DNA of 64,000 nt from a virus. Under the pieces are notes generated by a model. The model saw nothing but the letters and a program-made list of their open reading frames with translations, did not search any database and was not told the origin of the DNA. The DNA lies in the IMG/VR virus record IMGVR_UViG_3300031143_000006; one strand, 5' to 3'. A program made the translations under genes and the position numbers. Below, piece by piece: positions 6,283 through 56,087 of the stretch (positions within the stretch are counted from its first letter, which is position 1; each line of letters starts with the position of its first letter).

Positions 6283-6522
6283 ATGAATAATCAATTCTTA
6301 TTTAAACCGGGTAATTACGAAGATTGGTCAATCTCGGCCCTTGATAAAGTAACAAAGGTAATAGATTCGTGTAATACTATAGAACATATTGAAACTGCTA
6401 AAAATATGGTAGATCATTTCATATTAATGATGGCAATTAACGAGACATACCCAGACGAAACAATACAAGACATTTCAAAACAACTTTATCTTTATTTAAC
6501 ATTAAAGAAAAACAAAATATGA
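6283..6522 (+). CDS. hypothetical protein (79 aa)
   Basis: ORF; its stop overlaps the start of the next gene (ATGA). Confidence 0.3.
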   Translation: MNNQFLFKPGNYEDWSISALDKVTKVIDSCNTIEHIETAKNMVDHFILMMAINETYPDETIQDISKQLYLYLTLKKNKI

Positions 6523-7097
6523 TTAACCCAAAAGGAATAGTAGGATTTACTGCAGGTAATTTCGATCTTCTGCACCCAGGTTACATATATACCTTTGAAA
6601 CTGCGAAAGAACATTGTGATTATTTCATGGTGTTTCTACAGATAGATCCATCAGAAACTAGATTCACTAAATACAAACCAGTTATTCCTCTATATGAGAG
6701 ATATAAGACGTTAATGGCAATTAAATACATTGATGAGGTTGTAACTTACCAAACAGAAGAAGATCTAATACAATTAATTGAATTTTATAAACCAGATGTA
6801 AGAATCCTAGGGGATGATTATATCGGTAAGAGATTCTCAGGAGATAATTTAAGCCCTGAAGTAGTTTACACAACAAGATCACATGGATGGTCTACTACTA
6901 AATTAAAGGATCTTATTACAATGCAAACTGTAAAGCAAAATCCGGAATTAATTGATAGAGCAAAGAACGAAGATTCAACATCAGCTGCCCAGAAATTAAT
7001 GCTAGAAATTAGAGATCAAATCGCACAATATTCTGAGGGTAAATTAACAGAGGTTGAATATAAGACTGGAATTAAAAAACTAATAGAACAAGCATGA
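6519..7097 (+). CDS. cytidylyltransferase-like nucleotidyltransferase (TagD / RfaE domain II-like)
   Basis: 'GFTAGNFDLLHPGY' matches the GxFDxxHxGH motif. The C-terminal 'SHGWSTTKL' motif is typical of the cytidylyltransferase superfamily. Confidence 0.55.
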   Translation: MINPKGIVGFTAGNFDLLHPGYIYTFETAKEHCDYFMVFLQIDPSETRFTKYKPVIPLYERYKTLMAIKYIDEVVTYQTEEDLIQLIEFYKPDVRILGDDYIGKRFSGDNLSPEVVYTTRSHGWSTTKLKDLITMQTVKQNPELIDRAKNEDSTSAAQKLMLEIRDQIAQYSEGKLTEVEYKTGIKKLIEQA

Positions 7098-8017
7098 GAA
7101 TAATCGTAACAGGAGGACTTGGATTTATAGGATCATCATTCGTAAACTTACTTAACAGAAGATTACCAAATGATGAGATAGTTATTTTAGATAAAATGAC
7201 ATATGCTGCAAATCCTAATAATATTAAAGTGGCGACAACCCTCATAATGAAAGATATATGTGATGTTGTCGCTGAAGACTTGGGGGACTATGATTACATG
7301 GTTCACTTTGCTGCGGAGAGCCATGTTGATAACTCTATTAAAGACGGTAAACCGTTTATTAGAACTAATGTAGAAGGAACATTCAATCTATTAGAGTGTG
7401 CCAGACAGAACCCTAACTTAAAGAAGTTCATACATATATCAACTGACGAAGTATACGGAGATATGGCAGATATTGGTTTATTAGCGGAAGCTAACGAATC
7501 TTTCGGACTAACAGGATCTTCATACTATTCAGCATCAAAAGCTGCTAGTGATTTATTAGTTGAAGCATGTGGAAGGACGTTTGGATTACCGTATTTAATT
7601 ACAAGAACATGTAATAATTATGGAGAACACCAGAACGAAGAGAAATTCATTCCAAAGATAATGAAATCCATAGCAAATGATTTAACCATTCCAGTTTATG
7701 GAGATGGTAGACAGGTTAGAGAATGGATCGACACTGAAGATAACGTCCAATTAATTTACGAATTAATGTTATCTGATATGGAAGGAGAAGTATATAATAT
7801 CGGAAGTGGAGAAAAGTATGAGAATATAGAGATCATTAATATGATAGGAGAAATGTTAGGAAAGACTCCTAAGTTTGAATTCGTAGAAGATAGATTAGGT
7901 CATGATAAAAGATATGCATTAGATTCTACTAAAGTTAGGGAAGTATTCTCAGATTGGGAAACATTATCATTCAAAGAATTTTTATTGGAACAAATAAATG
8001 CATTAAAGAACAAATAA
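7094..8017 (+). CDS. rmlB: NDP-sugar 4,6-dehydratase of the dTDP-glucose 4,6-dehydratase (RmlB) type
   Basis: Matches: TGGLGFIGS Rossmann motif, AAESHVDNS, HISTDEVYGD, YYSASKAASD (YxxxK), CNNYGE and GHDKRYALD. These line up along the length with E. coli RmlB. Confidence 0.7.
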   Translation: MRIIVTGGLGFIGSSFVNLLNRRLPNDEIVILDKMTYAANPNNIKVATTLIMKDICDVVAEDLGDYDYMVHFAAESHVDNSIKDGKPFIRTNVEGTFNLLECARQNPNLKKFIHISTDEVYGDMADIGLLAEANESFGLTGSSYYSASKAASDLLVEACGRTFGLPYLITRTCNNYGEHQNEEKFIPKIMKSIANDLTIPVYGDGRQVREWIDTEDNVQLIYELMLSDMEGEVYNIGSGEKYENIEIINMIGEMLGKTPKFEFVEDRLGHDKRYALDSTKVREVFSDWETLSFKEFLLEQINALKNK

Positions 8018-8041
8018 ATGCAATTGTTAATAACTTTTATA

Positions 8042-8080
8042 AAATAAGTGAGTCAGGATTTTTCTGGTTCACTTTTTTTG
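8042..8080 (+). terminator. terminator-like hairpin followed by a T7 tract
   Basis: aagtgagtcagg-attttt-ctggttcactt then ttttttt. Confidence 0.35.
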
Positions 8081-8098
8081 TTTATATTTACTTATAAC
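8081..8098 (+). promoter_or_regulatory. conserved promoter-like element, copy 1 (TTATATTTACTTATAAC)
   Basis: One of 8 near-identical motif copies. It lies 18 nt upstream of the ATG at 8117. Confidence 0.5.
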
Positions 8099-8116
8099 TA
8101 ATAAACAACATATATT

Positions 8117-8536
8117 ATGATGAAAGTACAAGATTTAAAAGAAGGAGATATTGTTAACATGGATCCTAATAATATCAATGGAGATATTGTTTTAATTACA
8201 GGTAAATTGATAAGATACAACGGTATGAATAAATACCTTATGGAAGTTGAAGGTACTGACATGTTAATTGACGGTGAAACTACTGTCAATTTAATAGAAA
8301 GCAATTATACTCCTAAATCTGAACAAGATAGATTTAATGAGATAATGAATACTAAGGAATATTTAACGCAAGAGGAATATGACTTTTGTTTTGGTGTTGA
8401 TGGGTCTATTAGGATTGATACTTCATATGTCGGTAATAACGGTGAAACTCGATTGGGTGTTTATTTGAATTTAAGACTTTACTCAGAACATGATGAAGAA
8501 ATATATGACGGTGATGATTGTAACAATATGTACTAA
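8117..8536 (+). CDS. hypothetical protein (139 aa)
   Basis: ORF downstream of a conserved promoter motif. Confidence 0.35.
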   Translation: MMKVQDLKEGDIVNMDPNNINGDIVLITGKLIRYNGMNKYLMEVEGTDMLIDGETTVNLIESNYTPKSEQDRFNEIMNTKEYLTQEEYDFCFGVDGSIRIDTSYVGNNGETRLGVYLNLRLYSEHDEEIYDGDDCNNMY

Positions 8537-8593
8537 TTGTTAATAACTTTGTGAAAACAGTTGCACAAAAGTTTTTTTATATGACATAAAATG

Positions 8594-8611
8594 CTTATAT
8601 TTACTTATAAC
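8594..8611 (+). promoter_or_regulatory. conserved promoter-like element, copy 2
   Basis: CTTATATTTACTTATAAC, 16 nt upstream of the ATG at 8628. Confidence 0.5.
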
Positions 8612-8627
8612 TAATAAACTAAAAGAT

Positions 8628-8969
8628 ATGCCATTCATTACTAAAGATCAAATTACTACTAAAAGAAAACAATTAAAAGCTGCACTTCCACAGTATAAGC
8701 TTTCAGTAACAAACAAACACTTCTCGGGAATTAACGTAGCAATCATAGAGGGACCTAACGATCTTGGACATGAATACAATCAATTGAACGAAAATTGTGC
8801 CGATTGGTATAATGCAGAAGTTCAATCTATATTATCTACAATAATGCCAATATTAAACGAAGGAAAAGGAGCTTCAACTGAAGACGGTGATTACGGAATG
8901 ATTCCAGATTTTTACACATGGGTCCAGATTGGAAAATGGGACAAGCCATATATTTTAAAGAATAAATAA
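8628..8969 (+). CDS. hypothetical protein (113 aa)
   Basis: ORF downstream of a conserved promoter motif. Confidence 0.35.
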   Translation: MPFITKDQITTKRKQLKAALPQYKLSVTNKHFSGINVAIIEGPNDLGHEYNQLNENCADWYNAEVQSILSTIMPILNEGKGASTEDGDYGMIPDFYTWVQIGKWDKPYILKNK

Positions 8970-8972
8970 ATT

Positions 8973-9119
8973 ATGACAGATGAAGAAACAATAGCACTGC
9001 TAGAAAAAGAAGCAGAAGATTTAAAGTACAGAGATCCTATTGATACTACACAATGGGCATATAACGAAGGAATAGAAGATTTAATAATTAAATTCAGTAA
9101 TAAACTAAAAATAAACTAA
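8973..9119 (+). CDS. small hypothetical protein (48 aa), not in the ORF track
   Basis: ATG..TAA ORF that fills the gap between neighbouring genes. Confidence 0.2.
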   Translation: MTDEETIALLEKEAEDLKYRDPIDTTQWAYNEGIEDLIIKFSNKLKIN

Positions 9120-9124
9120 AAACT

Positions 9125-9325
9125 ATGGCAATCAACTACAAACATCATTGGGAAAAGAATCCAGTACTTAGCAGAACATTAACAAACAAAGAAGATTTCG
9201 ATGCTGTAAACAAGAAAGCTCTTGCTAAGAATGAGAAAGAAACAGTATTTCCATCGTATATTATGATGGATGGAGTTCCTCACAAAATGACAAAGGACGG
9301 ATGGGTTGCTTTTACTAAAATGTAA
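9125..9325 (+). CDS. hypothetical protein (66 aa)
   Basis: ORF. Confidence 0.3.
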   Translation: MAINYKHHWEKNPVLSRTLTNKEDFDAVNKKALAKNEKETVFPSYIMMDGVPHKMTKDGWVAFTKM

Positions 9326-9366
9326 ACAAATCCATTTAATAGAGTATAAGAATCAAACACAAATTT

Positions 9367-9636
9367 ATGAGGAGTATTTTAGAAGAAGCAAATGATATAG
9401 TAAACAATCGTAGCGAAGAAGCAGATAGATCTTACGGACCTTTTTCAGAAGGAATGGACAGAGCCGCTATGATTTTTCAAGGAATGACAGGGCACGAAGT
9501 AACGGGTGCAGATATGTTTAAAGCACTAGTAGCACTTAAATTCTCTAGGGAATCTTATAATCACAAGAAGGATAATTTATTAGATGCAGTAGCATACATA
9601 CAAGGATTAGAAAATTACGTTAACGAAAAAGGATAA
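9367..9636 (+). CDS. hypothetical protein (89 aa)
   Basis: ORF. Confidence 0.3.
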   Translation: MRSILEEANDIVNNRSEEADRSYGPFSEGMDRAAMIFQGMTGHEVTGADMFKALVALKFSRESYNHKKDNLLDAVAYIQGLENYVNEKG

Positions 9637-9637
9637 C

Positions 9638-10666
9638 ATGAAAGTAGCAATCACATCAGTTTTTTCTAACTTGACATACAATAAAAAGAATCATAGAGGT
9701 TTGGAGATTGTATATTTTAAACAATTGTTAGAAGAAAACAATTACGAAGTAGATCTTATAGGAAAGAAAGGACGCAACACCGCAGATTTAGATTTCTATG
9801 TAGATTACAAAGACGCTAAATGGGATGAATATGATGCAATCTTTATTCAATTAAGTACTGCTAACTTCTTCGGAGGTAAAGTTGGAGACCATACAGAATC
9901 TGTCGCTAGAGAAATAGCTGGATATGGCGGAAAGATCTTCACTCTCGTGAATGATCCTCGTATTGATTTCTTGAATCCAGTAGAAAAATTGAAGAGATTC
10001 AATCTAATCCAAGATCTTGAATCTGAGTGGTCCGATGTGATTGAGAATGCAACCTACTTATTCCCTGGTAAAGATATTAGTAAATTCTTAGGAAGAACAC
10101 CTAAAAACTGGAAACAATTAGACTGGTTCACTTATATGTTCAAGCAAAGAATGTCTAGTAATATGACAAAACCAACAAACTCTTTATTCGACTTCGACAC
10201 ACCTAAAAAAGAAAATGATTTAATTTATTATGGTGATAATCGCGCAGCATTTAGAGAGAAGCAAATTAGAAAGTACTTTCCAGATAGCGAAAACAATTTA
10301 CTAATAGGATATAAAACTAAAAAAGTAAATGCACCTTTTGTAAAGAAGATGGAACACTCTGTTTTATTAGATACAATTTCAAAAAGTAAAGCAAGTTTAA
10401 TTATAGGAGACGCAGAACACTTAGATAATGTAATAACATACAGGTTCTATGAAACTATGGCATCTGATTGTCTTGCTGCAATTCAAATAGAATACGATCC
10501 AAACAAAGAATTAATTAGTGATCCGGTTTTACGTGATATACTATATGTAAAATCAAAGTCTGATGTTGAGAAGTTAATAAGTTCTTACTCAGAAGATTTA
10601 ATTTCACGACAAAAGAAAGAATTAGAAAACATTTTCAATAATCTTGATATAACCTTTAAAATATAA
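9638..10666 (+). CDS. DNA beta-glucosyltransferase-like glycosyltransferase (T4 Bgt family, GT-B fold)
   Basis: 'MKVAITSVFSN', 'ANFFGGK', 'IYYGDNRAAFRE' and 'SLIIGDAEHLDNVITYRFYETMASD' align with T4 beta-glucosyltransferase at 'MKIAIINMGNN', 'NFFGGK', 'IYGGSFRSGQRE' and 'ALIIGDKNYNDNFITLRVWETMASD'. The T4 sequence is from memory. Confidence 0.6.
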   Translation: MKVAITSVFSNLTYNKKNHRGLEIVYFKQLLEENNYEVDLIGKKGRNTADLDFYVDYKDAKWDEYDAIFIQLSTANFFGGKVGDHTESVAREIAGYGGKIFTLVNDPRIDFLNPVEKLKRFNLIQDLESEWSDVIENATYLFPGKDISKFLGRTPKNWKQLDWFTYMFKQRMSSNMTKPTNSLFDFDTPKKENDLIYYGDNRAAFREKQIRKYFPDSENNLLIGYKTKKVNAPFVKKMEHSVLLDTISKSKASLIIGDAEHLDNVITYRFYETMASDCLAAIQIEYDPNKELISDPVLRDILYVKSKSDVEKLISSYSEDLISRQKKELENIFNNLDITFKI

Positions 10667-10669
10667 CAA

Positions 10670-11137
10670 ATGGCAAATATAGACAATGAATGTAAAGATC
10701 TAGAAGTAAAAGATTTTTACACAAACTCAACAACACATTTAGCGGACATCATGGAAAACCAAAAAAAGATGCAAGAGCAGACTTATGGTTTTAACTTTGA
10801 AGACATGTCAATACGAGAAGTAATGGATTTTTGGCATGTTAATACACATGCACTAGTCGATGAAATTCATGAAATGACTGACGCACTTGGAGGTATTAAA
10901 GATGGTTCTGGAAACGCAGTATGGAAATACTGGAAAAAAGACTTTAAGAAATATGATACAATGAAAGTATCAGATCTTTCTGAAGGAGATAAAAAAGAAC
11001 TGTATATGGAATGGGTAGATATTTTACACTTCTTTATGAATTATGCATCCTCAATTGGATTAGATGCAAAAACTGCTTTTAATTACTACTTCGCAAAAGC
11101 TGAAGAGAATGTTCAGAGGCAGAAACGCAATTATTAA
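10670..11137 (+). CDS. MazG-like nucleoside triphosphate pyrophosphohydrolase. It may be a dCTPase/dUTPase analogous to T4 gp56.
   Basis: All-alpha protein of ~155 aa with 'EIHEMTDALGG' and 'ELYMEWVDILHF', typical of MazG/dimeric dUTPase EExxE-type motifs. Confidence 0.5.
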   Translation: MANIDNECKDLEVKDFYTNSTTHLADIMENQKKMQEQTYGFNFEDMSIREVMDFWHVNTHALVDEIHEMTDALGGIKDGSGNAVWKYWKKDFKKYDTMKVSDLSEGDKKELYMEWVDILHFFMNYASSIGLDAKTAFNYYFAKAEENVQRQKRNY

Positions 11138-11188: not shown

Positions 11189-12067
11189 ATGAAGAAAGCA
11201 TTTATATATCAGTGGATTAACAAAATTAATAATAAGAAATATATTGGATCTCACATTGGAGTGCCTGAAGACAATTATACTGGCTCAGGCACTTACTTTA
11301 AGAACGCATATCTTAAAAATCCAGAATCATTCACTAGAGTTATTTTAGAAGTAATAGAAAGTGAAGACATACATTCGGAAATAAGAATTCTTGAAGAAAG
11401 TTATTTAAATAAAGTAGATGCTGCAAATAGCGTTGAATATTATAACATAACTAATAGATACTACGGAGGAGATACTTATTCAGGACTTAGTACTGAAGAC
11501 AAGGCAAAAATGATTAAAGGTTGGAGCGAATCTGGAAGATTAGACAGATTACATAATCCACAGAAGTATATTGAATTAAAGAGAAAACAAAGTATCGCAC
11601 AGAGAATTACAGGAAAGAATGTTTATCAATTTAGTAAAGATGGTTATTTGTTAAATGAGTATGATTGTTTAGAAGTAGCAGCAAATAAAACCAATACATC
11701 TAAAGGTAACTTACATAGTGCGCTGAATGAATCTAGAAATACCGCAGGAGGATTCCGATGGTCTTATAGTAAAAAACCTAATGATTTGATACCAGTTAAA
11801 CCTAGGGTATATTCTAAAACAGGAAAACAAAAGAATCCAAGTGGAAAAACAAATAAAATATTCACACAAGTATTACAATATGACTTAGAGAATAATTTAT
11901 TAAGAACTTGGAATAGTAGAAACGAAATTGAAGAAGAATTAGGTATTAGCAAAGGTATGATTAACCATGCACTTAATAACAAAGTAAAGAAAACCGGAGA
12001 ATATAAAGGTTTTATTTGGAAAAAAGGTAAACAAATCACAATTGTAGAATATAATAACAAATCTTAA
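11189..12067 (+). CDS. GIY-YIG homing endonuclease (I-TevI/Seg-like) with C-terminal NUMOD-type DNA-binding modules
   Basis: The N-terminal 'IYQWINKINNKKYIGS...G...Y' is the GIY-YIG motif. The C-terminus has repeated 'GNLHSALNESRNTAGGFRW' / 'ISKGMINHALNN' modules. Confidence 0.7.
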   Translation: MKKAFIYQWINKINNKKYIGSHIGVPEDNYTGSGTYFKNAYLKNPESFTRVILEVIESEDIHSEIRILEESYLNKVDAANSVEYYNITNRYYGGDTYSGLSTEDKAKMIKGWSESGRLDRLHNPQKYIELKRKQSIAQRITGKNVYQFSKDGYLLNEYDCLEVAANKTNTSKGNLHSALNESRNTAGGFRWSYSKKPNDLIPVKPRVYSKTGKQKNPSGKTNKIFTQVLQYDLENNLLRTWNSRNEIEEELGISKGMINHALNNKVKKTGEYKGFIWKKGKQITIVEYNNKS

Positions 12068-12077: not shown

Positions 12078-13475
12078 ATGATATTAGATATTGAGCAAAG
12101 AGACAAGGACGTAATTGTATCGTATTACGATAAAGAAGGAAAAGTTGCATATAAACAATATCCAATAGCACAATATCAGAATTGGTATATTTGTGGTGAA
12201 AAAGAAAAAGGAGTAAGTAAGGAATATACAAATTGGGATGGCCGCCCTGTTAAATTAGGATACGGTCGTCAATTTAATAAGTTTTCTCTTAATTACTTCA
12301 TTGATGGTTTACCGGAAAAAGATCGTGAAGAGATCTTAGCATATAACTTGCCAAAGACATATTTCGTAGATATTGAAACAGAAATTGTTGATGGTTTTCC
12401 AAAAGCAGAAGAAGCGAAAACAAGAATCTTATCATTCTCAATTATTACACCTGATCGTAAGGCAATCGTTTTAGGATTAGAAGATATGGCCCCTGATAAA
12501 ATTCAAAAGATCGAAGATGATACTAACGAATATTTTAAAGACTTTGATCAAGATTGGGAATTTAAATACCATAAGTTCAAGAGCGAGTATGATATGGTTT
12601 ATACTTTCTTAATGAAGTTCTTACCCAAGTTCCCTATGATGACTGGTTGGAATTTTATAAACTATGACTGGCAATATATCGTAAACAGAAGTAAAATATT
12701 ACAGATAGATATTACTGAAGTTGGTATGACGGGGAAAGTTGATAGAAACGACAGTAGACCTTTGCATATCGGAATCTTAGATTACATGCAACTGTATGAC
12801 AAATACGATCGTAGTGTTAAAGTGAAAGAATCTAATTCACTCGATTACGTATCAGGTCAAGTTTTAAATGTTAAAAAAATAAAGTATACTGGGGGATTAC
12901 AAGATCTATACAGAGATAACTTTGTTAAATACATTTATTATAATGTAGTCGATTCAGTATTGGTATATTATATAGACCAGAAACTTAAATCAATGGAAGT
13001 TCTTTTAACATTGGCAAATATTACAAAGATGCCTCTTTATAAAGCAGCTTCGCCAGTGGCAGTTACAGAATCCCTAATGGCTAGGAAATTAGCAGAACAA
13101 GGAATGCGAATTGGAACTGAACAAAAGGAAGACTTTGAAAAAAGCACACAATACGCAGGAGCTTATGTTAAAGAACCATTAGTTGGATATTATGAAGGAG
13201 TAACGGCATTTGATTTTGCTTCCCTATATCCTTCAATAATGAGACAATTTAATATATCACCAGATGCATATATTGAACAAGTTAAGAAACACGAAATAAA
13301 AGAGAGAAGAAAGGATAATGAAGTAATTGTATGTGATAATGGCGTTGTATATTCAAAAGAAGATTCTGTTCTTAAGAAAATACTTTCAGATTTATATAAT
13401 CAACGTGTGGAATACAAAGATGAGTCATATAAATACTTTACTAAAGCTGATAATCTCAAAAAAAGATTAAAATAA
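12078..13475 (+). CDS. family-B DNA polymerase, N-terminal cistron (3'-5' exonuclease plus palm motif A)
   Basis: Contains 'YFVDIETE' (Exo I) and 'DFASLYPSIM' (PolB motif A DxxSLYPS). The ORF ends ~60 aa after motif A. Confidence 0.75.
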   Translation: MILDIEQRDKDVIVSYYDKEGKVAYKQYPIAQYQNWYICGEKEKGVSKEYTNWDGRPVKLGYGRQFNKFSLNYFIDGLPEKDREEILAYNLPKTYFVDIETEIVDGFPKAEEAKTRILSFSIITPDRKAIVLGLEDMAPDKIQKIEDDTNEYFKDFDQDWEFKYHKFKSEYDMVYTFLMKFLPKFPMMTGWNFINYDWQYIVNRSKILQIDITEVGMTGKVDRNDSRPLHIGILDYMQLYDKYDRSVKVKESNSLDYVSGQVLNVKKIKYTGGLQDLYRDNFVKYIYYNVVDSVLVYYIDQKLKSMEVLLTLANITKMPLYKAASPVAVTESLMARKLAEQGMRIGTEQKEDFEKSTQYAGAYVKEPLVGYYEGVTAFDFASLYPSIMRQFNISPDAYIEQVKKHEIKERRKDNEVIVCDNGVVYSKEDSVLKKILSDLYNQRVEYKDESYKYFTKADNLKKRLK

Positions 13476-13484
13476 ATATAACCT

Positions 13485-14465
13485 ATGAAAAACAATATTT
13501 TCGAAAAGAGGGTAAATATTCTACCATATGAATACCCATCGCTATTAGCATATAAAGACGCTATTAGACACTCATACTGGATTCATACTGAATTTAATTT
13601 CACAACCGACATTGATGATTTTAAAACTAAAATAACAGAACCAGAACGTGAAGTAATTAAAAGATCTATGTTAGCAATTGCACAGATCGAAGTTAGTGTT
13701 AAAACATTTTGGGCAGATCTTTATAAAAGAATGCCAATTACAGAAATAGGAGATGTTGGAATGACATTTGCAGAATCTGAAGTTAGACATAAAGATGCGT
13801 ATGCACAGTTACTTAGAATTTTAGGACTTGAAGAAGAGTTTGAACATGTTATTGAGATTCCTGCAATTAAGGACAGAATAGCATACCTAACAAAATATCT
13901 TGATGGAACTAGAAGCAAGGATAACAGAATGTACACCAAATCAGTACTGTTATTTTCATTGTTTATAGAGCATGTTAGTTTATTTAGTCAGTTTTTAATC
14001 ATGATGTCTTTCAATAAAGATAGGAACTTATTTAAGGGAATTTCTAATGTAGTTGAAGCAACTTCAAAAGAGGAAGAAATTCACGGAAATTTCGGAGCAG
14101 AACTTATTAACATTATTAAATCAGAAAATCCCGAATGGTTTGATGCAGAGTTTGAAAAGGTTATTGATTCAGCATGCAAGAAAGCATATTTAGCAGAGGT
14201 TAAGATTTTAGATTGGATCTTTGAAAAAGGAGAACTTAGTTTTTTATCTAAAGACACTATTAAAAACTTCATACAAAACAGATTCAACAACTCGTTACAA
14301 AGAATTGGGATGAAGCCAGTATTTGAAGTAGATTTCACAGAAATCGAAAAAACATTATGGTTTGACGTGGAGATTCTTTCAACTAAAGAAGGGGATTTCT
14401 TTTACAAAAAATCAATAGATTATAATAAAAAATCAAAATCAATAACCGAGGATGATTTATTCTAA
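13485..14465 (+). CDS. nrdB: ribonucleotide reductase class I beta subunit
   Basis: Ferritin-like di-iron motifs: 'ESEVRHKDAYAQLL', 'FIEHVSLFSQF' and 'EEEIHGNFGAELI'. Confidence 0.7.
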   Translation: MKNNIFEKRVNILPYEYPSLLAYKDAIRHSYWIHTEFNFTTDIDDFKTKITEPEREVIKRSMLAIAQIEVSVKTFWADLYKRMPITEIGDVGMTFAESEVRHKDAYAQLLRILGLEEEFEHVIEIPAIKDRIAYLTKYLDGTRSKDNRMYTKSVLLFSLFIEHVSLFSQFLIMMSFNKDRNLFKGISNVVEATSKEEEIHGNFGAELINIIKSENPEWFDAEFEKVIDSACKKAYLAEVKILDWIFEKGELSFLSKDTIKNFIQNRFNNSLQRIGMKPVFEVDFTEIEKTLWFDVEILSTKEGDFFYKKSIDYNKKSKSITEDDLF

Positions 14466-14515
14466 AGAATAATATTTTTAATTTAAAACCAAACAAAAAT
14501 AACAGACAAATTTAA

Positions 14516-16141
14516 ATGGATTACGAAAAAAATTATTGGCTAAACGAAGACAGTCGAACATTCTTAAATAGAGGTTACATTTCAGAATCTCCAGAGCAAC
14601 GAATCAAAGACGTTGCAAATACAGCAGAACATTACTTAAAAATTGAAGGATTCGCAAAGAAATTTGAAGACTATATGACTAGAGGTTTTTATAGTTTATC
14701 AACACCGGTTTGGATTAACTTTGGAAAAGATAAAGGATTACCAGTTAGTTGTTACGGATCAAACGTTGATGATACGTTAGATAGTATTTTAAACGCAAGT
14801 AGAGAAATTGGAATGATGTCCAAATACGGTGGAGGAACTTCTGCATATTTAGGTAACATTAGAGCAAGAGGAACAGTTATTTCAACAGGAGGAACAGCAG
14901 ATGGACCTGTTCATTACGCTAGGATGTATGATACTACAGTTGATGTATGTAAACAATCTGAAGCTAGAAGAGGGGCATGTGCTGCATGGCTACCGGTTGA
15001 ACATAATGATATTTTAGAATTCTTAGATATCGGAACAGATGGTAACCCTATTCAGAATTTACAATACGGAGTAACAGTTACTGATAAGTGGATTCAAGAA
15101 ATGAAAGATGGCGATGTATCTAAGCGTAAGATATGGGCTAAAGTTATTCAAAGAAGAAATGAATTTGGATTTCCATATATAATGTTTAAAGATAATTCAA
15201 ATAACAATTCACCATATAAAGAATTAGGACTTGAAATTACAGCATCTAATTTATGTAGTGAAATACAATTACCAACAGATTCTTTTAATTCATTCGTATG
15301 TTGTTTAGGTTCTATTAACCTTTTACACTGGGATGAAATTAAAAAGACAGATGCAATCGAAACTTACGTATTGTTCTTAAACGCAGTGATGGATGAATTC
15401 ATTAAAAAATCAGGAGCATTACCTGGAATGCAAAGAGCACATAGATTCGCAGAACAGCATAGGGCATTAGGATTAGGAGTTCTTGGATATCATTCATTAT
15501 TTCAATCTAAATTAATAGCATTCGATTCTTTACAATCAAAGGGATTAAACCACGATATATTCTCAACACTTCAAGAAAGAAGTGAAAAGGCATCAAGATG
15601 GTTACATGATGAAAGAGGTTATAGATCTATTAGAGATGGTTATGCAAATACAACTTTAAACGCAATAGCACCAACTAAATCTAGTTCTTTTATATTAGGT
15701 CAAGTTTCAATGGGAATCGAACCTATCAAATCTAATTATTTTATTAAGGATTTAGCGAAATCTAAAACCATTTATAAGAATCCATTTCTTATAGAGGAAT
15801 TAAATAAATATGATTTAAATACAACAGATGTTTGGGAAGGAATTCTTAAAAGAGATGGAAGTGTTCAGCACTTAGATTTCCCAACTAAAGAAGTTTTTAA
15901 ATCGTTTGTGGAAATTACACCAAAGGAAATAGTTTTACAAGCAGCACAAAGACAGAAGTTTATAGATCAATCACAATCTTTAAATTTAATGATACACCCT
16001 AGCGTTCCAGCAAAAGATATTAATCAATTATATTTATTTGCCCACGAAGAAGGAGTAAAAACTTTATACTATCAATTTAGTCAAAGTTCAGCTCAATCAT
16101 TTGCAAGAGATATCCTAGACTGCGCATCCTGTGAAGGATAA
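14516..16141 (+). CDS. nrdA: ribonucleotide reductase alpha subunit (compact, 541 aa)
   Basis: 'GGGTSAYLGNIRARGTVISTGG', 'EARRGACAAW', the active-site 'ASNLCSEIQLP' and a C-terminal Cys pair 'CASCEG'. Confidence 0.7.
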   Translation: MDYEKNYWLNEDSRTFLNRGYISESPEQRIKDVANTAEHYLKIEGFAKKFEDYMTRGFYSLSTPVWINFGKDKGLPVSCYGSNVDDTLDSILNASREIGMMSKYGGGTSAYLGNIRARGTVISTGGTADGPVHYARMYDTTVDVCKQSEARRGACAAWLPVEHNDILEFLDIGTDGNPIQNLQYGVTVTDKWIQEMKDGDVSKRKIWAKVIQRRNEFGFPYIMFKDNSNNNSPYKELGLEITASNLCSEIQLPTDSFNSFVCCLGSINLLHWDEIKKTDAIETYVLFLNAVMDEFIKKSGALPGMQRAHRFAEQHRALGLGVLGYHSLFQSKLIAFDSLQSKGLNHDIFSTLQERSEKASRWLHDERGYRSIRDGYANTTLNAIAPTKSSSFILGQVSMGIEPIKSNYFIKDLAKSKTIYKNPFLIEELNKYDLNTTDVWEGILKRDGSVQHLDFPTKEVFKSFVEITPKEIVLQAAQRQKFIDQSQSLNLMIHPSVPAKDINQLYLFAHEEGVKTLYYQFSQSSAQSFARDILDCASCEG

Positions 16142-16310: not shown

Positions 16311-17090
16311 TTGTATTATAAATCCAAAAGAAACATGAAAATCACAATTAAAAAAGTAGATCAAACGAATTTCATCAACTTCATCAATAGATTGAAGGTA
16401 ATTGATTCATTCGTTTATTTTAAGATTAAAGATGGTATCGTTCAAGCATCAGCTTACTTACCACAAAGAGATGCTGTAAAGCACCACAGACTTCCGGTTA
16501 GTCAATTATTTCAAATTGAAGAAGGAACAATCACAACAACCAAAGAACTTAAAGTTGCTTTCTTTGATGCACAGAAATTAACAGATGCATTCAAGCAATT
16601 CGAGTATGATTCTATTCAAGGTGAAATTGAATTCATTGAGAATGACGAAGATTTCGTAGCATCTAGCTTCCGTATCTTTAATGACGAATTAGAAATTAAA
16701 TTAGCTTGTTCTGAACCATCATTAGGATATAAAGATCTTACGGATTCTCAAATCGCAACTATTTTCAATGTAGAAGATGCAAGTTTTAAATTTGACATGG
16801 ATTACACTACATTAAACAAAGTTAAATCACTTTTTGGATTAGATAAAGAAGAAACATTCTCTATCGAAGCAAATGGAAAAGGAGTTAAATTAACAGGTAA
16901 CACTTACAATATGTTAGTTACACCGGATTATGAAGGTACTGCAGGTAAAAAAGTTACATTATTCAAAAAATATTTAAATCTATTAGACAAAGAAGACTAT
17001 ACAGCGAATGTATTAGATAATCGTGTTGTATTGAGATCAAATGACTCAGAGACATTATTAACTATTGCAACTTGCCAAACCGCTGAATAA
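16311..17090 (+). CDS. putative sliding clamp (gp45-like). The true start may be the Met at 16335.
   Basis: Size ~250 aa. The N-terminal 'KITIKKVDQTNFINFINRL' resembles T4 gp45 'KLSKDTTALLKNFATIN'. The gene sits between the RNR and polymerase genes. Confidence 0.4.
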   Translation: MYYKSKRNMKITIKKVDQTNFINFINRLKVIDSFVYFKIKDGIVQASAYLPQRDAVKHHRLPVSQLFQIEEGTITTTKELKVAFFDAQKLTDAFKQFEYDSIQGEIEFIENDEDFVASSFRIFNDELEIKLACSEPSLGYKDLTDSQIATIFNVEDASFKFDMDYTTLNKVKSLFGLDKEETFSIEANGKGVKLTGNTYNMLVTPDYEGTAGKKVTLFKKYLNLLDKEDYTANVLDNRVVLRSNDSETLLTIATCQTAE

Positions 17091-17097: not shown

Positions 17098-18300
17098 ATG
17101 ACTGATATAGAACAATTAATAGAGAAACCAGAAAACGAACTTAGCGTTGAAGAAACGACAGTATTGATAGCACATTACGAACAGATGTCTGCTAAATATA
17201 CTGCATATGAGCAAGCTGTCAAAGTAACGTTAAACTCGATTTATGGTGCATTTGGAAATAAATGGTTTCATTTCTTTGATATAGAAATTGCAGAGTCAAT
17301 TACCTTACAAGGTCAATCTGCTATTTTATATTCTGAAAAGATACTTAATAAGTATTTTCAAGAATTCTGGCCAAAGGATACTGCAGCTCACGAGCATTTT
17401 AATATTAAAGTAAAAGGAAGGTTAGTTAGACCATCAGTTGTTTATATTGACACAGATTCATGTTATGTTCAGTTTGAAGAAATGTATGAATCTATTGAAT
17501 GGTTAGGGCCAGACGAGCTTTCAATAGATAAATTCATTATGGAGTTGTATAATTTTAGAATTAAAGATTATATATCAAAATGTATGCAGAAATATGCAGA
17601 AGTAACTAATACAGAAAACTTCTTATATTTTGATATGGAAACAATAGCATACTCTGGAATATGGTTAGCTAAGAAAAAATACTTGCAGAATATCGCGTGG
17701 GAAGATAAACTTGATATTGATGATAGATACCCTTCTCTTAAGAAGATTAAAACTATCGGATTCGATACGATACAGAGTTCTACACCGGCGCTTGCACGTA
17801 AGCATTTAACAGAGGCACTTCAATTAGTACTTTCTGAGAAACCAACAGCAGATCTTTTAAAGAAGCTTGTTGAATATCTTAAGAAATGTAAGAAGGAATT
17901 CAGACTTGCAGATATAGACCAAATTGCGTTTAACAAAAGAACGAACAACATCGAGAAATATATTGTAGATGATACCATCGAATTCCAGATTGGACTTAAA
18001 TGTCCTCCTAATGTAAGAGCTGCTGGATTCTACAATTTCTTAATGAATACCAATCCTAAGTACAAGAACAAGTATAAGATGATAGGTAACGGAGAAAAGT
18101 TAAAACTATATAATTGTAAACATCATGTATCAGACATGTTCGCATATATGCCAGGTGATCACCCTTATGAGATTGCGCCTGAGGTTGATTATGAAATTCA
18201 ATTTGAAAAAAGTGTAATCGATCCTTTGAATAGGGTATTAAAAGCTGTAGGTTTACAACTACTAAATAGAAACTTAATTTACTCAACATCATTATTTTAA
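17098..18300 (+). CDS. family-B DNA polymerase, C-terminal cistron (motifs B and C, thumb)
   Basis: 'KVTLNSIYGAFG' matches motif B (KxxxNSxYG). 'VYIDTDS' matches motif C. Confidence 0.75.
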   Translation: MTDIEQLIEKPENELSVEETTVLIAHYEQMSAKYTAYEQAVKVTLNSIYGAFGNKWFHFFDIEIAESITLQGQSAILYSEKILNKYFQEFWPKDTAAHEHFNIKVKGRLVRPSVVYIDTDSCYVQFEEMYESIEWLGPDELSIDKFIMELYNFRIKDYISKCMQKYAEVTNTENFLYFDMETIAYSGIWLAKKKYLQNIAWEDKLDIDDRYPSLKKIKTIGFDTIQSSTPALARKHLTEALQLVLSEKPTADLLKKLVEYLKKCKKEFRLADIDQIAFNKRTNNIEKYIVDDTIEFQIGLKCPPNVRAAGFYNFLMNTNPKYKNKYKMIGNGEKLKLYNCKHHVSDMFAYMPGDHPYEIAPEVDYEIQFEKSVIDPLNRVLKAVGLQLLNRNLIYSTSLF

Positions 18301-19787: not shown

Positions 19788-20098
19788 TGAAAGTGGACGT
19801 TCATTCAATAGTTGATGACAAACTACCAATAAAATATATACTAGGCATTCAGGATCAGTTAGAAGCTTTTCCTGATGCTTATGATATTTTATACATATTC
19901 ATCAACGAAGCTGTAAGAAGGCCAGACAGACAAAAGGAAACATTTACTAAGCATGCTTTAATGAGATACCATTCAAAGGGTAACCATAAAAATGCAGAAG
20001 AAGGTTTAAAAAGAGCAATGCAATTAGGTTTAATTGAACAAGTTAAATTTGATGAAGGCAAGGAAACATACGAAATAAAAATAAACCCATACACATGA
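19787..20098 (+). CDS. hypothetical protein (103 aa)
   Basis: ORF. Confidence 0.3.
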   Translation: MKVDVHSIVDDKLPIKYILGIQDQLEAFPDAYDILYIFINEAVRRPDRQKETFTKHALMRYHSKGNHKNAEEGLKRAMQLGLIEQVKFDEGKETYEIKINPYT

Positions 20099-20667
20099 TA
20101 GCAGTATTTGACGATTTCATAAAAGATGAAAATCTAATTAAAGACATTCAAAATGATCCTAATTTCTACATACCAACAGGATATTACAAATACTGGAAAG
20201 GATGGTGGAATAAAGAACCAGAAACAGTTAAACAAAGGTTGATACAATATATATGGAAAGAACATCTTCCAATTAAATTAAATGTATCAATTGACGGATT
20301 CGAACATTGGACTGGGTTACAAATTGCTGATTCAACGGATGGTAGACGAAACTATTTAGAATTACATTTAGATGATGATGTTGCATATAGAAAGGAAACA
20401 GGAAATAGAATGTTCCCTTTATTAGGATGCGTATACTATCCCCCTGGTTTTGAATTCGAAGGCGGAGATCTTCATATCTATACAGATGGGGAAGAAAACT
20501 CGCCAGAGGTAATCAAAACAAAAGCAAACAGATTAGTTATATTTAATCCAGGTGAATTCGTTCACGGAGTATCTGAAGTAACATCAGGAACAAGAGGAGC
20601 AATTGCAATTAATATATGGTCAACAGAGCCATGGTCAGTTGGTCAAGGACATATTGTGTTAGAATAG
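20095..20667 (+). CDS. 2OG-Fe(II) oxygenase superfamily protein (P4H/PhyH-like)
   Basis: 'LHLDDD' ... 'VHGV' ... 'RGAI' is compatible with the HxD...H...R 2-His-1-carboxylate/2OG-binding arrangement in a DSBH fold. Confidence 0.4.
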   Translation: MIAVFDDFIKDENLIKDIQNDPNFYIPTGYYKYWKGWWNKEPETVKQRLIQYIWKEHLPIKLNVSIDGFEHWTGLQIADSTDGRRNYLELHLDDDVAYRKETGNRMFPLLGCVYYPPGFEFEGGDLHIYTDGEENSPEVIKTKANRLVIFNPGEFVHGVSEVTSGTRGAIAINIWSTEPWSVGQGHIVLE

Positions 20668-28202: not shown

Positions 28203-28694
28203 ATGTCTATAAAGAATGTCAAACCAACAAAGAATTCTGGATTCAACCAAGGATATTATATCCCGGCCTTTCCTAAAAAATACATAGGTCCCACTCCAAT
28301 AATATATAGGAGCTCATGGGAACGTAAATTCTGCGTATGGTGTGATAATAATGACAAGGTATTGAATTGGTCAAGTGAGCCCCTAGAAATTAAGTATTGG
28401 TCTAGGCAAGATAATAAGGCACATAAGTATTATCCAGACTTTTATTTTAAGCAAATACAACCCGATGGTAATACATTAGAATATGTTGTAGAAATTAAAC
28501 CAAAAGCACAGATAACTAAACCACAGCCTCCAAAGAATCCTTCTAAAAAATCTATCCAGTCATATAAGTTCTTAGCGGAACAGTATGTTAAAAATATGGA
28601 TAAATATAATGCAGCACTAGAGTTTTGCGAAGGAAGAGGTTATAAATTTATTGTTTTAACTGAAGATACTATATTAAAGAATGGGTTACGTTAA
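28203..28694 (+). CDS. head completion protein (T4 gp4 homolog, PD-(D/E)xK fold)
   Basis: 'IIYRSSWERKFCVWCDNN', 'YYPDFYF' and 'EYVVEIKP' resemble T4 gp4. Confidence 0.55.
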   Translation: MSIKNVKPTKNSGFNQGYYIPAFPKKYIGPTPIIYRSSWERKFCVWCDNNDKVLNWSSEPLEIKYWSRQDNKAHKYYPDFYFKQIQPDGNTLEYVVEIKPKAQITKPQPPKNPSKKSIQSYKFLAEQYVKNMDKYNAALEFCEGRGYKFIVLTEDTILKNGLR

Positions 28695-54149: not shown

Positions 54150-54247
54150 TATTTATTATTAAAGTAACTTCCCTATCTATATTCATTATAAATAACACAT
54201 TTATCAAAAAATAAATGATTAAATGTTTTTTATATTCAATATAAAGT

Positions 54248-54265
54248 GTTATATTTACTTATAAC
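54248..54265 (+). promoter_or_regulatory. conserved promoter-like element, copy 4
   Basis: GTTATATTTACTTATAAC, 13 nt upstream of the ATG at 54278. Confidence 0.5.
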
Positions 54266-54277
54266 TTAAAATAAATT

Positions 54278-54733
54278 ATGAAAAAACAAACAGTAATATT
54301 CGATCTAGACGGAACATTAGCATTAATCGACGAAAGAAGAGCTTTAGCAGATAGACCAGGGGAAAAGATGAACTGGAAAGTATTCTTCGCACCAGAAAAC
54401 ATCCAATTAGATAAACCAAATAAACCAGTTATTGAATCTTTCAAAGCTTTAAAAGCTTCAGGATTTACCGTTGGTGTATTTAGTGGAAGAGATGATATTA
54501 GTATTAAAGAAACTAAAGCATGGTTAATTGAAAATGGAATTGAAGTAGATTTCTTGAAGATGAGAAGAAGCGGAAGTTTCGTTCCAGATGATAAGTTAAA
54601 GAAACTTTGGTTAGAAGACATCCAAGCAGAAGGACATGAAGTTATGTGTGTTTTTGATGATAGAGACAAGGTAGTTAAGATGTGGAGAGAGAATGGAATT
54701 TCTTGTTTCCAAGTTGCCGAAGGTCCTTTCTAA
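54278..54733 (+). CDS. HAD-superfamily phosphatase
   Basis: Motif I 'VIFDLDGTL', motif III 'K' and motif IV 'VFDDRD'. Confidence 0.55.
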   Translation: MKKQTVIFDLDGTLALIDERRALADRPGEKMNWKVFFAPENIQLDKPNKPVIESFKALKASGFTVGVFSGRDDISIKETKAWLIENGIEVDFLKMRRSGSFVPDDKLKKLWLEDIQAEGHEVMCVFDDRDKVVKMWRENGISCFQVAEGPF

Positions 54734-55416: not shown

Positions 55417-56013
55417 ATGATTGTTTATGTTGCACCTCCCAGAGGGAAACTAGAAAAAATAGCCTTTACTAATTGGTTGGAATCTTATGGATTTGTACCA
55501 ATTTGGTTAGATGATAGTTTTACAACAATGGAAGGACCTTTAATACTATGCGGAGGAGCAGATATTGGAGTTAGACCTGAACGAGATCTTAATGAAAACA
55601 AATGGATTGATATGGCGCTAGCCAACAATCAAACGATAATTGGAGTTTGCAGAGGAATGCAAGTATTGAATCTTTATTTTGGAGGGGAAGTTGCAGACAT
55701 TGATTGCGACATATTAGAGTACCACAAGAATGATGATTTTTCTGATGATACTGATCATAGTCATAGACTTTCGCAGTTTCATAAGATAGAAGACTCCAAT
55801 AAAAATATTCTTACAGTTAATTCTAGACATCACCAACATTGTTCTAGAGTAGCGGATAACTTCACAGTAACACATACGGCACTCCCTGATGGACTAGTAG
55901 CGGAAGCATTTGAAGATATAAGTAGGAATATATGGGCCGTACAATGGCACCCTGAAAGAACAGAATCTCAAGACAATATGTACCCTTTAAATAAAATTGT
56001 TAATAACTTTTAA
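55417..56013 (+). CDS. class I glutamine amidotransferase-like protein (peptidase C26 / gamma-glutamyl hydrolase type)
   Basis: Nucleophile elbow 'IGVCRGMQVLN'. The His motif 'VQWHPE' matches the QFHPE motif of GATase1. Confidence 0.5.
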   Translation: MIVYVAPPRGKLEKIAFTNWLESYGFVPIWLDDSFTTMEGPLILCGGADIGVRPERDLNENKWIDMALANNQTIIGVCRGMQVLNLYFGGEVADIDCDILEYHKNDDFSDDTDHSHRLSQFHKIEDSNKNILTVNSRHHQHCSRVADNFTVTHTALPDGLVAEAFEDISRNIWAVQWHPERTESQDNMYPLNKIVNNF

Positions 56014-56052
56014 AAATAAGTGCATAAAAGTTTTTTTATATCAATATAAAGT

Positions 56053-56070: not shown

Positions 56071-56087
56071 ATTAAAACAAACGTATT

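Follow-up and report, generated by a model that had tools for sequence, protein, structure and literature searches.

Why would a phage keep a relative of the T4 DNA beta-glucosyltransferase (Bgt) beside an enzyme predicted to destroy dCTP, and both of them near genes for making deoxy sugars? The question arises from a 64 kb stretch of viral DNA, IMG/VR record IMGVR_UViG_3300031143_000006 (the window; all positions refer to it). The original prediction, made from the letters and their open reading frames (ORFs), proposed that this phage decorates hydroxymethylated DNA bases with a sugar derived from a deoxy-hexose. All the ORFs that it named are present at their positions on the + strand. Because the Bgt relative adjoins a predicted dCTP-destroying enzyme and lies near deoxy-sugar genes, the phage DNA is probably coated with sugar, and the best reading of the module is a T-even-like system for glycosylating 5-hydroxymethylcytosine (hmC). 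Overall, we somewhat favor the view that the phage swaps cytosine for hmC and then glycosylates it, the donor possibly being a phage-tailored nucleoside diphosphate (NDP)-sugar of the 6-deoxy series.

To place the window in its genome, the flanks were walked through contigs that matched exactly or were at least 94% identical, from ~-18 kb on the left to +103.5 kb on the right (~122 kb examined overall). About 160 viral loci were collected and their genes clustered locally; numbers preceded by L are labels of such loci, which are IMG/VR contigs.

A glycosyltransferase of the T4 Bgt family

The core of the module consists of three closely packed genes.

9367..9636, + strand: DUF6378 protein, 89 amino acids (aa) (PF19905, 40.8 bits)
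9638..10666, + strand: predicted DNA glycosyltransferase (GT) of the T4 beta-glucosyltransferase family, 342 aa (Pfam, PHROG, phmmer, Foldseek, and residue mapping)
10670..11137, + strand: predicted T4 gp56-like dCTPase/dUTPase, an all-alpha nucleoside triphosphate (NTP) pyrophosphatase, 155 aa (phrog_173, phmmer, and BLASTP)

Judged by its sequence and its modeled GT-B fold, the product of ORF 9638-10666 is a genuine member of the T4 Bgt family. The Pfam family T4-Gluco-transf (PF09198) matches the N-terminal domain with 37.6 bits (gathering cutoff, 27), the PHROG beta-glucosyltransferase phrog_7922 covers the full length (75 bits, residues 1-320), and phmmer aligns residues 1-311 with T4 Bgt (1BGT) at an E value of 5.5e-16. 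The likeness had first been noticed from the blocks NFFGGK, IYxGxxR, and LIIGD...ITxRxxETMASD, and this alignment contains all three. Residues E23, D106, R202, R206, R269, and E272 of GT correspond to E22, D100, R191, R195, R269, and E272 of the T4 enzyme, and the NFFGG loop also maps. We take Asp100 and Glu22 of T4 Bgt to be catalytic and Arg191, Arg195, Arg269, and Glu272 to bind UDP, the last by contacting the UDP ribose. All six catalytic or UDP-binding residues of GT are invariant among 15 homologs with identities down to 44%.

The AlphaFold2 (AF2) model of GT had a predicted local distance difference test score (pLDDT) of 89.5 and a predicted template modeling score (pTM) of 0.86. When it was compared with the PDB by Foldseek, ranks 1 to 6 were all T4 Bgt (E values of 2e-18 to 6e-16, template modeling scores of 0.64-0.71), and rank 7 and other GT-B enzymes followed at 6e-7 or worse, an 11-log gap. 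Since T4 Bgt is nearest by sequence and by fold and the Bgt residues are kept, GT is not closer to the polysaccharide glycosyltransferases, a relationship that the original prediction had singled out as pointing to an O-antigen or lipopolysaccharide (LPS) cluster. The best matches in cultured phages are the T-even Bgts, with identity of 26-30%; the family is large, and its members are known from metagenomes only. A second GT was not found in the ~122 kb examined.

The neighbors of GT

The gene downstream starts 3 nt past the GT stop codon. Its MazG-like product had been expected to play the part of T4 gp56, and by sequence it is homologous to T4 gp56 itself and predicted to hydrolyze dCTP and dCDP. 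It matches the PHROG NTP pyrophosphohydrolase phrog_173 with 59 bits and T4 gp56 with 52 bits in phmmer and 62 bits in BLASTP (33% identity over 94 aa, E value of 1e-17 for the pair), and the two proteins have the blocks DEfrEl..LG, AVWKkWK, and E.VDI.HF in common. It also matches the dimeric dUTPase family weakly, and a sequence search of the PDB gave no relative. The gene is kept beside GT across the lineage.

Upstream, the DUF6378 gene lies 1 nt from GT, so that only 1 nt and 3 nt separate the three genes. DUF6378 is the most faithful partner both of GT and of dCMP hydroxymethylase genes: it is present in 81 of the 89 GT loci and, counting all loci, in 135, mostly upstream of a variable slot and a hydroxymethylase gene, and it is 60-70% identical between otherwise unrelated contigs. 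A profile of 23 sequences had no match in the PDB, and no function is described for the family in the literature. A kinship with the MazG-like pyrophosphatases was tried and rejected (hhalign probabilities with MazG and gp56-like profiles did not exceed 2%); a single-sequence AF2 model (pLDDT of 61) was too poor for use. The whole unit is located in the neighborhood of the genes for the B-family DNA polymerase (PolB), UvsX, and gp41, where the order in T4 is 43-42-beta-gt-uvsX-41.

The GT family occupies a variable slot in probable hydroxymethylcytosine cassettes

What does GT act on? In ~100 viral contigs (L056-L158 among them) the genes follow one order: DUF6378, a variable slot, a ThyA-type hydroxymethylase, and a MazG-type pyrophosphatase. 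This cassette is clear in small marine phages, often together with a dCMP deaminase. The slot is filled by a Bgt-like GT, a protein of the T4 alpha-glucosyltransferase family (AGT, 52 bits), an S-adenosylmethionine-dependent methyltransferase, a 344-aa protein lacking a Pfam match (cluster 70), or a three-gene set formed by clusters 22 and 25 plus a pyridoxal phosphate (PLP) enzyme; it can also be empty. In 30 GT loci a ThyA homolog adjoins GT and carries the specificity residues of T4 gp42 (N177D, with D169 kept). Because of the Asp at the N177 position and the retained D169, the ThyA homologs of the cassettes would be dCMP hydroxymethylases and not D169N 5-hydroxy-dCMP synthases of the RB69/DLP3 kind.

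This context of DUF6378, slot, and hydroxymethylase argues strongly that the GT family acts on hmC DNA. We regard it as very probable that the GT of the window acts on hydroxymethylated pyrimidines in DNA and, given this, highly probable that the base is hmC rather than 5-hydroxymethyluracil (hmU).

In the clade of the window, DUF6378 and GT are followed by the gp56-like gene and PolB, in some members with a homing endonuclease ahead of PolB, and no ThyA homolog is present at that site. A sister clade (L031 7000-13700; also L052-L055) has different genes around GT in place of the pair of sugar genes that precedes it in the window (a nucleotidyltransferase and an RmlB-like dehydratase, described below). 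They encode a 349-aa protein, myo-inositol-1-phosphate synthase, a Methyltransf_21 protein, a protein with a 5-hydroxymethyldeoxyuridine DNA kinase domain (HMUDK_hel), a cREC_REC protein, and a small protein with a HAD-like DxDGV motif and no Pfam match. Between the two clades GT is 46% identical, whereas DUF6378 is 89%, the gp56-like protein 81%, and PolB 70-74% identical. The gene set of the sister clade suggests a different hypermodification that depends on a kinase, on inositol, or on both. A third clade (L030-L051) has DUF6378 and GT with no sugar genes nearby. The window also encodes a protein with a cREC_REC cyclic-phosphate-processing receiver domain (57959-58369, 70 bits), whose gene adjoins the HMUDK-like gene in the L031 clade.

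A candidate dCMP hydroxymethylase outside the window

If the base is hmC, where is the hydroxymethylase? The original prediction had proposed searching the rest of the genome for one. A ThyA/gp42 profile (hmmsearch --max) found no divergent ThyA among the window ORFs, a Pfam census of the 78 remaining flank ORFs gave no ThyA and no ThyX, and scans of IMG/VR with the hydroxymethylase profile returned only other lineages among the matches listed. The search thus failed within the window and the ~122 kb examined, but it led to a gp42-type enzyme on a syntenic relative contig and to a close homolog in the same samples. The route was through the hydroxymethylase of L246, a locus that shares accessory genes with the window phage; queried against a large protein database, it retrieved the protein P0153. 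The longest contig with P0153, Ga0206128_1000047 (145,564 bp), is syntenic with the right flank of the window phage over 16 ORFs at 68-86% identity, and P0153 lies ~64 kb further along, at the equivalent of ~+136 kb, between ClpB-like and ClpP genes. Its homolog P0146 (89% identical) has the same ClpB-hydroxymethylase-ClpP context and comes from samples that also yielded exact-match contigs of the window phage (ERZ27316540, Ga0308024, 3300031141). The P0146 contig has a G+C content of 33.7%, compared with 31.9% in the window, and the intergenic repeat of the window phage occurs on it five or six times. The gp42-type residues are present in all 120 listed members of the P0153/P0146 family. Synteny of the P0153 contig, occurrence of P0146 in the same samples, similar G+C content, and shared repeats together make it likely that the window phage encodes a dCMP hydroxymethylase elsewhere in its genome.

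Two other proteins of the window were considered as substitutes and set aside. ORF 16335-17090 (251 aa) has the size of gp42 and no similarity to ThyA, Pfam, PHROG, or PDB entries; an impression of a sliding clamp was unconfirmed. The 2-oxoglutarate (2OG)-Fe(II) oxygenase at 20095-20667 (190 aa) was weighed as a hydroxylase of the TET/JBP type, but it matches the P4H-like family PF13640 and not Tet_JBP, it is only 190 aa long, and no C5-methyltransferase is present.

The sugar-nucleotide genes

Upstream of the GT unit lie a pair of sugar-nucleotide genes and the elements that close it; one further sugar gene lies far to the right, 43 kb from GT.

6519..7097, + strand: predicted nucleotidyltransferase like TagD and RfaE domain II, 192 aa (PF01467, phrog_7878, and TagD)
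7094..8017, + strand: predicted RmlB-like NDP-hexose 4,6-dehydratase, 307 aa (Pfam, PDB matches, TIGR01181, and motifs)
8046..8084, + strand: terminator-like hairpin with a 13-bp stem and a T-run, closing the pair
8082..8106, + strand: copy of a repeat element with the core TTATATTTACTTATAACTAATAAAC, upstream of ORF 8117 (blastn-short)
8117..9325, + strand: three small ORFs between the sugar genes and the GT unit, of 139 aa, 113 aa (with an LPD29 domain), and 66 aa
53365..53931, + strand: predicted RmlC, an NDP-4-keto-6-deoxyhexose 3,5-epimerase, 188 aa

The first two genes overlap by ATGA and are translationally coupled. ORF 7094-8017 is by sequence an RmlB-type 4,6-dehydratase, as had been proposed, by all measures except the strict NCBIfam equivalog cutoff: its ten best PDB matches are all dTDP-glucose 4,6-dehydratases (best E value of 6e-68), and it scores 309.1 bits with TIGR01181 (cutoff, 365.1), the next family being LegB with 105 bits. 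It also matches the Pfam families Epimerase (173 bits) and GDP_Man_Dehyd (162 bits) and has the NAD-binding GxxGxxG, TDE, and YxxxK motifs as GGLGFIG at residue 7, TDEVYG at 117, and YSASK at 145. The family placement of the TagD/RfaE-like nucleotidyltransferase held (47.4 bits with PF01467, CTP_transf_like; 110 bits with phrog_7878; E value of 3e-16 with TagD, 1COZ), but its substrate is unassignable, as it reaches 64.6 bits with rfaE_dom_II (cutoff, 181.5) and 63.6 with g3p_cytidyltrns (cutoff, 165.4). Its RTxGISTT-type motif is present as RSHGWSTT at residue 120. The RmlC-type epimerase expected at 53.4 kb scores 207 bits with PF00908 and 196.9 bits with TIGR01221, over the equivalog cutoff of 155.75. 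In contrast, the HAD protein at 54278-54733, which had been counted in the sugar set as a phosphatase, matches Pfam HAD_PNKP with 104 bits and Pnkp1 and T4 Pnk best in the PDB, and we have set it aside as a 3'-phosphatase domain of the polynucleotide kinase-phosphatase type.

More genes of this kind follow past the window. They encode a Cupin_2 protein, a 290-aa short-chain dehydrogenase/reductase (SDR), an NT5C deoxynucleotidase, an ATP-grasp protein, a NodU/CmcH carbamoyltransferase (~8 kb out) and then a second small nucleotidyltransferase (170 aa), a 232-aa RmlD-like SDR, and a protein of the UDP-glucose/GDP-mannose dehydrogenase family. A guanylate-kinase-family protein (55.5 bits) is encoded ~2.4 kb past the window. 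Of the kinase, RmlD, and RmlA that the original prediction had proposed looking for, the RmlD-like SDR and this guanylate-kinase-like protein were thus found past the window, but no gp1-type kinase and no RmlA.

The GT unit begins ~1.3 kb past the hairpin and repeat that follow the RmlB-like gene, and the three small ORFs in between are only partly conserved within the clade. The repeat belongs to a family with the 25-nt core TTATATTTACTTATAACTAATAAAC, in which longer copies (50-130 nt) reach 98% identity; other copies in the window lie at 8595-8619, 54236-54266, 56027-56090, 58908-59012, 60781-60910, and 62681-62741. Copies stand directly upstream of many accessory genes and recur on flanking contigs and on the candidate hydroxymethylase contig. 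These elements are probably phage promoters or 5' leaders. A scan for sigma-70 promoters gave no matches above shuffled expectation, and such a scan is not informative for a Bacteroidota-type host.

A protein of the Peptidase_C26/GATase family is encoded at 55417-56013; its best NCBIfam match, gamma-glutamyl-CDP-amidate hydrolase, is weak (52.9 bits; cutoff, 250). With the ATP-grasp, carbamoyltransferase, and cytidylyltransferase genes downstream (L259 5310-9653) it might take part in a CDP-activated amide or phosphoramidate chemistry, which is speculative.

A proposed pathway

We hypothesize that the gp56-like pyrophosphatase (10670-11137) hydrolyzes dCTP and dCDP to dCMP, as its homology to the T4 enzyme suggests. 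A T4 gp42-type dCMP hydroxymethylase, its gene placed at ~+136 kb by analogy with the relative, would make hm-dCMP; a nucleotide kinase (the candidate being the guanylate-kinase-like gene) and the host NDP kinase would then convert this into hm-dCTP, which the split B-family polymerase would incorporate. GT would finally take the sugar of an NDP-sugar and attach it to the hydroxymethyl group of the base in duplex DNA, with Asp106 as the catalytic base, the acceptor being suggested by the genomic context. In these cassettes DUF6378 would be an obligatory component. The weakest step concerns the donor, which may be a phage-tailored 6-deoxy NDP-sugar rather than plain host UDP-glucose. Its makers could be sought among the nucleotidyltransferase/4,6-dehydratase pair, RmlC, the RmlD-like reductase, the further SDR, the cupin, the second nucleotidyltransferase, and the carbamoyltransferase.

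Do the sugar genes feed GT? The nucleotidyltransferase/RmlB pair lies upstream of GT in every sufficiently long locus of the clade. The divergence of GT in the L031 clade (46% identity) coincides with the exchange of the biosynthetic genes beside it, the other neighbors staying 70-89% identical. In unrelated lineages (L101/102, L342, L351, L391-395), small TagD/RfaE-like nucleotidyltransferases, in some cases with an SDR and a cupin, stand beside the hydroxymethylase or GT. Resting on proximity, this comparative association, and one published precedent (see below), the link of the sugar genes to GT is plausible but unproven. A donor sugar that is made by the phage and is deoxy or unusual in another way seems to us a real possibility, somewhat short of an even chance. 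We are more hesitant about a fuller reading in which several things hold together: hmC would carry a 6-deoxy sugar (a rhamnose-type 6-deoxyhexose or a 6-deoxyheptose, possibly carbamoylated) from a phage-made donor, transferred by the Bgt-family enzyme; DUF6378 would be a core part of ThyA-based hmC pathways; the slot would take exchangeable beta-GT-like, alpha-GT-like, methyltransferase, and PLP modules; and the sister clade would make an inositol- or kinase-dependent modification. As a whole, this combination is tentative and rather unlikely.

Alternative explanations

A simpler account is plain T4-style glucosylation from host UDP-glucose, carried out by GT, the gp56-like enzyme, DUF6378, and a distant hydroxymethylase. 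The sugar genes would then be unrelated auxiliaries that serve remodeling of host surface polysaccharides, virion glycosylation, or superinfection exclusion. We judge this possible but doubtful. The match between GT divergence and the exchange of the adjacent biosynthetic genes, with flanking genes conserved, argues against it, as do the recurrence of small nucleotidyltransferases, SDRs, and cupins beside the hydroxymethylase or GT in unrelated lineages, the experimental precedent of a cytidylyltransferase-dependent betaGT-like DNA GT, and the failure to find a polysaccharide-type GT, flippase, or polymerase in ~122 kb.

Several observations nevertheless weigh against a phage-tailored donor or against the hmC pathway as a whole, and some of them favor plain glucosylation directly. 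The T4 UDP-contacting residues are conserved in GT, E272 included, and GT is therefore compatible with ordinary UDP-glucose. The hairpin and the promoter-like repeat transcriptionally separate the sugar pair from the GT unit, and the remaining sugar genes, RmlC and the RmlD-like gene among them, are dispersed over ~85 kb. The HxGH signature of the 192-aa nucleotidyltransferase reads HPGY in every ortholog of the clade, a degenerate motif (the 170-aa paralog beyond the window and homologs beside the hydroxymethylase or GT elsewhere have the canonical HAGH), and no RmlA was found among the phage genes examined. RmlB-like and SDR genes occur in related contigs (L244) together with a canonical ThyA, with no GT, DUF6378, or gp56-like gene in the ~19 kb locus fetched, and the L030-L051 clade has GT without sugar genes nearby. 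On the candidate hydroxymethylase contig, a GT2-family gene and DUF2827 might encode the real consumers of the sugars. As for the base, no ThyA or ThyX homolog was found from ~-18 kb to +103.5 kb; the sites where other T4-like lineages have the hydroxymethylase (from PolB to UvsX/gp41, and near UvsW and gp46/47) are empty here; and GT and the candidate hydroxymethylase were found on separate contigs. The original prediction of sugar-decorated hydroxymethylated DNA thus stands in that T-even-like hmC glycosylation is the best reading, but a deoxy-hexose made by RmlB and RmlC is not established, in view of the hairpin, the four small ORFs between the pair and GT, the HPGY motif, and RmlB-like genes that occur with no GT in the locus fetched.

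A thymidine hypermodification, in which GT glycosylates hmU DNA in a manner similar to base J, is improbable. GT of the L031/L052-L055 clade is flanked by HMUDK_hel, methyltransferase, and inositol-1-phosphate synthase genes, and the weak match of the pyrophosphatase to dimeric dUTPases would fit as well. Yet all hydroxymethylases linked to the GT family, and P0153 and P0146, have Asp at the N177 position like the dCMP-specific gp42 of T4; the pyrophosphatase is a homolog of gp56, a dCTPase; no HMUDK homolog is encoded in the window; and a relative has a canonical ThyA, which an hmU phage would not need.

More improbable still is a system in which GT acts on a polysaccharide, lipid, or protein (as in O-antigen/LPS or virion glycosylation) and the pyrophosphatase has a house-cleaning role: GT-B enzymes are versatile, and RmlB, RmlC, and a nucleotidyltransferase are classical surface-polysaccharide genes, but GT is nearest to T4 Bgt by a wide margin in fold and sequence and keeps the Bgt residues, its gene sits in the replication module between DUF6378/gp56-like genes and PolB, and the same family adjoins a dCMP hydroxymethylase in ~30 loci and alternates in one slot with an enzyme of the T4 alpha-GT family.

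The phage and its host

The window is the terminal ~64 kb of ENA contig k141_923735 (ERZ27317808; 134,433 bp). It has a G+C content of 31-32% (31.9%) and nearly all of its genes on the + strand. T4-type structural and packaging proteins (portal, major capsid protein, gp15, large terminase, and sheath) are encoded along with T4-type replication proteins (clamp loader, gp46/47, UvsX, gp41-like helicase, ribonucleotide reductase [RNR], and B-family polymerase). Comparison with deposited phages at the DNA level gave no close match. The capsid protein comes closest to that of an uncultured 462 kb phage (52%), with Prevotella Lak phages next; the matches also include Tenacibaculum phages. The window contains a gene for a DUF6089 outer membrane beta-barrel protein at 57094-57714 (118 bits), a family that we take to be typical of Bacteroidota. 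Together, the capsid matches and this gene suggest a marine Bacteroidota host; the phage is an uncultured marine T4-like myovirus, and its host is probably of this phylum. A related 175 kb contig, IMGVR_UViG_3300027810_000002 (175,162 bp, with GT at ~19-20 kb), starts at the window equivalent of ~+78.5 kb and ends at ~+28.6 kb; from its extent and ends we infer a genome size of at least ~225 kb.

Comparison with known DNA glycosylation systems

The module resembles the hmC pathway of the T-even phages in its homologous GT (same residues and closest fold), its homologous dCTPase, the candidate gp42-type hydroxymethylase of the lineage, and its location near PolB, UvsX, and gp41. It differs in that the hydroxymethylase would not be adjacent but ~125 kb away, GT is only ~28-35% identical to T4 Bgt, no gp1-type kinase or alpha-GT was seen, and sugar-nucleotide genes lie nearby. 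DUF6378, the partner of GT here, is lacking in the T4 beta-gt region, and the probable Bacteroidota host and the ~225 kb genome also set this phage apart from T4.

The original prediction had called such a system undescribed. As a kind it is already known, since phage-made donors for DNA glycosylation have been published for arabinose, galactofuranose, and heptose. In the phage "contig 53," a HAD/APH enzyme, a cytidylyltransferase, and a T4-betaGT-like GT-B enzyme produce heptosyl- and di-heptosyl-5hmC, and reconstitution required all three for heptosyl-5hmC (Pyle et al. 2023, bioRxiv 10.1101/2023.12.21.572611). As in the window, a PF01467-type nucleotidyltransferase lies beside a T4-betaGT-like DNA GT, and there the donor is phage made. 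However, 5hmC arises there through a methyltransferase and TET and not through a ThyA homolog, and the GTs of contig 53 resemble T4 Bgt at the level of the fold only (E values of 1e-5 to 1e-7), whereas the window GT does so by sequence. No sugar kinase/HAD partner was found in our phage; a 4,6-dehydratase, a 3,5-epimerase, and a reductase are present instead and would give a deoxy sugar.

Phages RB69, DLP3, and HY126 have arabinosyl-5-hydroxycytosine, and RL38J1 has galactosyl/glucosyl 5-hydroxycytosine (5hoC) (NAR 2026, PMC13326640). As proposed for the window phage, these T4-like and other phages join an NDP-sugar pathway of their own to DNA GTs, a nucleotide kinase, a ThyA homolog, and a dCTPase in one program. 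Their ThyA homologs carry D169N and make 5-hydroxy-dCMP, whereas the enzyme of our lineage keeps D169 like gp42; their GTs are GT4-like (BshA/MshA-like) and not of the Bgt family, and the sugars are arabinofuranose and galactofuranose, not 6-deoxy sugars. Cassettes with a 5hmC carbamoyltransferase are also known (MetaGPA, eLife 2021, PMC8670742) and share with our phage a NodU/CmcH-type carbamoyltransferase alongside an NTP pyrophosphatase and a ThyA-type hydroxymethylase, which is likely in our phage. Because the carbamoyltransferase here adjoins a small nucleotidyltransferase and not the hydroxymethylase, its substrate may be the sugar and not 5hmC.

With the bacterial dTDP-L-rhamnose pathway (RmlA-RmlB-RmlC-RmlD) the phage shares an RmlB-like protein with the catalytic motifs, an RmlC over the equivalog cutoff, and an RmlD-like SDR. 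Unlike that pathway, it has no RmlA and instead two nucleotidyltransferases of the HIGH superfamily (TagD/RfaE-like); the genes are dispersed and form no operon, RmlB is short (307 aa) and below the equivalog cutoff, and the RmlD-like protein has only 232 aa.

If the proposed pathway is correct, the novelty would lie in the class of sugar (6-deoxy and possibly carbamoylated, the first deoxy-sugar DNA modification), in the lineage and its host, and in the role of DUF6378. DNA hypermodifications decide whether phage genomes are cut by restriction enzymes, CRISPR nucleases, and type IV systems, and every new sugar chemistry has also supplied enzymes for epigenetic sequencing and DNA labeling. With the present work, the reach of the Bgt family, judged by sequence and not just by fold, widens from the T-even phages of enterobacteria to uncultured marine phages that are abundant and probably have Bacteroidota hosts. 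The work also provides a concrete and cheaply testable set of candidate genes for the modification of DNA with a deoxy sugar, and DUF6378 and the variable slot next to the dCMP hydroxymethylase offer a place to look for new hmC-modifying enzymes.

Other genes of the phage

Between the GT unit and the polymerase lies one gene outside the pathway.

11189..12067, + strand: GIY-YIG/NUMOD homing endonuclease between the gp56-like gene and PolB

It is polymorphic among near-identical contigs and missing in many close relatives (e.g., L001, L002, and L029). A small GIY-YIG gene (L255 2959-3216) is likewise present in some assemblies only, and a Band-7 gene on the right side is mobile, loci that carry it not being syntenic. 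The B-family polymerase is split into 12078-13475 (exonuclease and N-terminal polymerase part) and 17098-18300 (C-terminal part), 3.6 kb apart, with nrdB, nrdA, and the unannotated 251-aa ORF in between; the split is kept in the relatives L029, L031, and L055. The RNR genes (13485-16141) appear to have been replaced recently: NrdB and NrdA share only 30-39% identity with their counterparts in close relatives, against 80-94% for the other genes of these relatives, and nrdB matches a Staphylococcus myovirus nrdB at 66-70% at the DNA level.

At the left end, ORF 305-919 is the C-terminal part of a 753-aa gene that starts before the window. The 626-aa protein encoded at 942-2822 is conserved in the lineage; its C-terminal residues ~426-594 resemble nicotinamide mononucleotide (NMN) adenylyltransferases (PF01467, 35 bits; weak NadR/NMNAT matches), and no match was found for the N-terminal 400 aa. 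A role in NAD salvage or counter-defense is possible. Past the window, L400 (~+83 to +103 kb) encodes a Tad3-family anti-Thoeris protein (E value of 9e-22), an RNA ligase with a PHA02142 OB domain, a LOG/SLOG-family protein, an M42 peptidase, and a second 2OG-Fe(II) oxygenase. These genes and the one for the PNKP-type phosphatase (54278) suggest a repertoire for RNA repair and counter-defense. A TnsA-like endonuclease gene (28203-28694) lies among the structural genes, and a single tRNA-Met (CAT) gene is present at 62494-62567. L259 contains four paralogous small genes in a row (12750-14867), all of whose products start with MKH(V/I)(K/R)LFE(E/Q/G)(F/Y).

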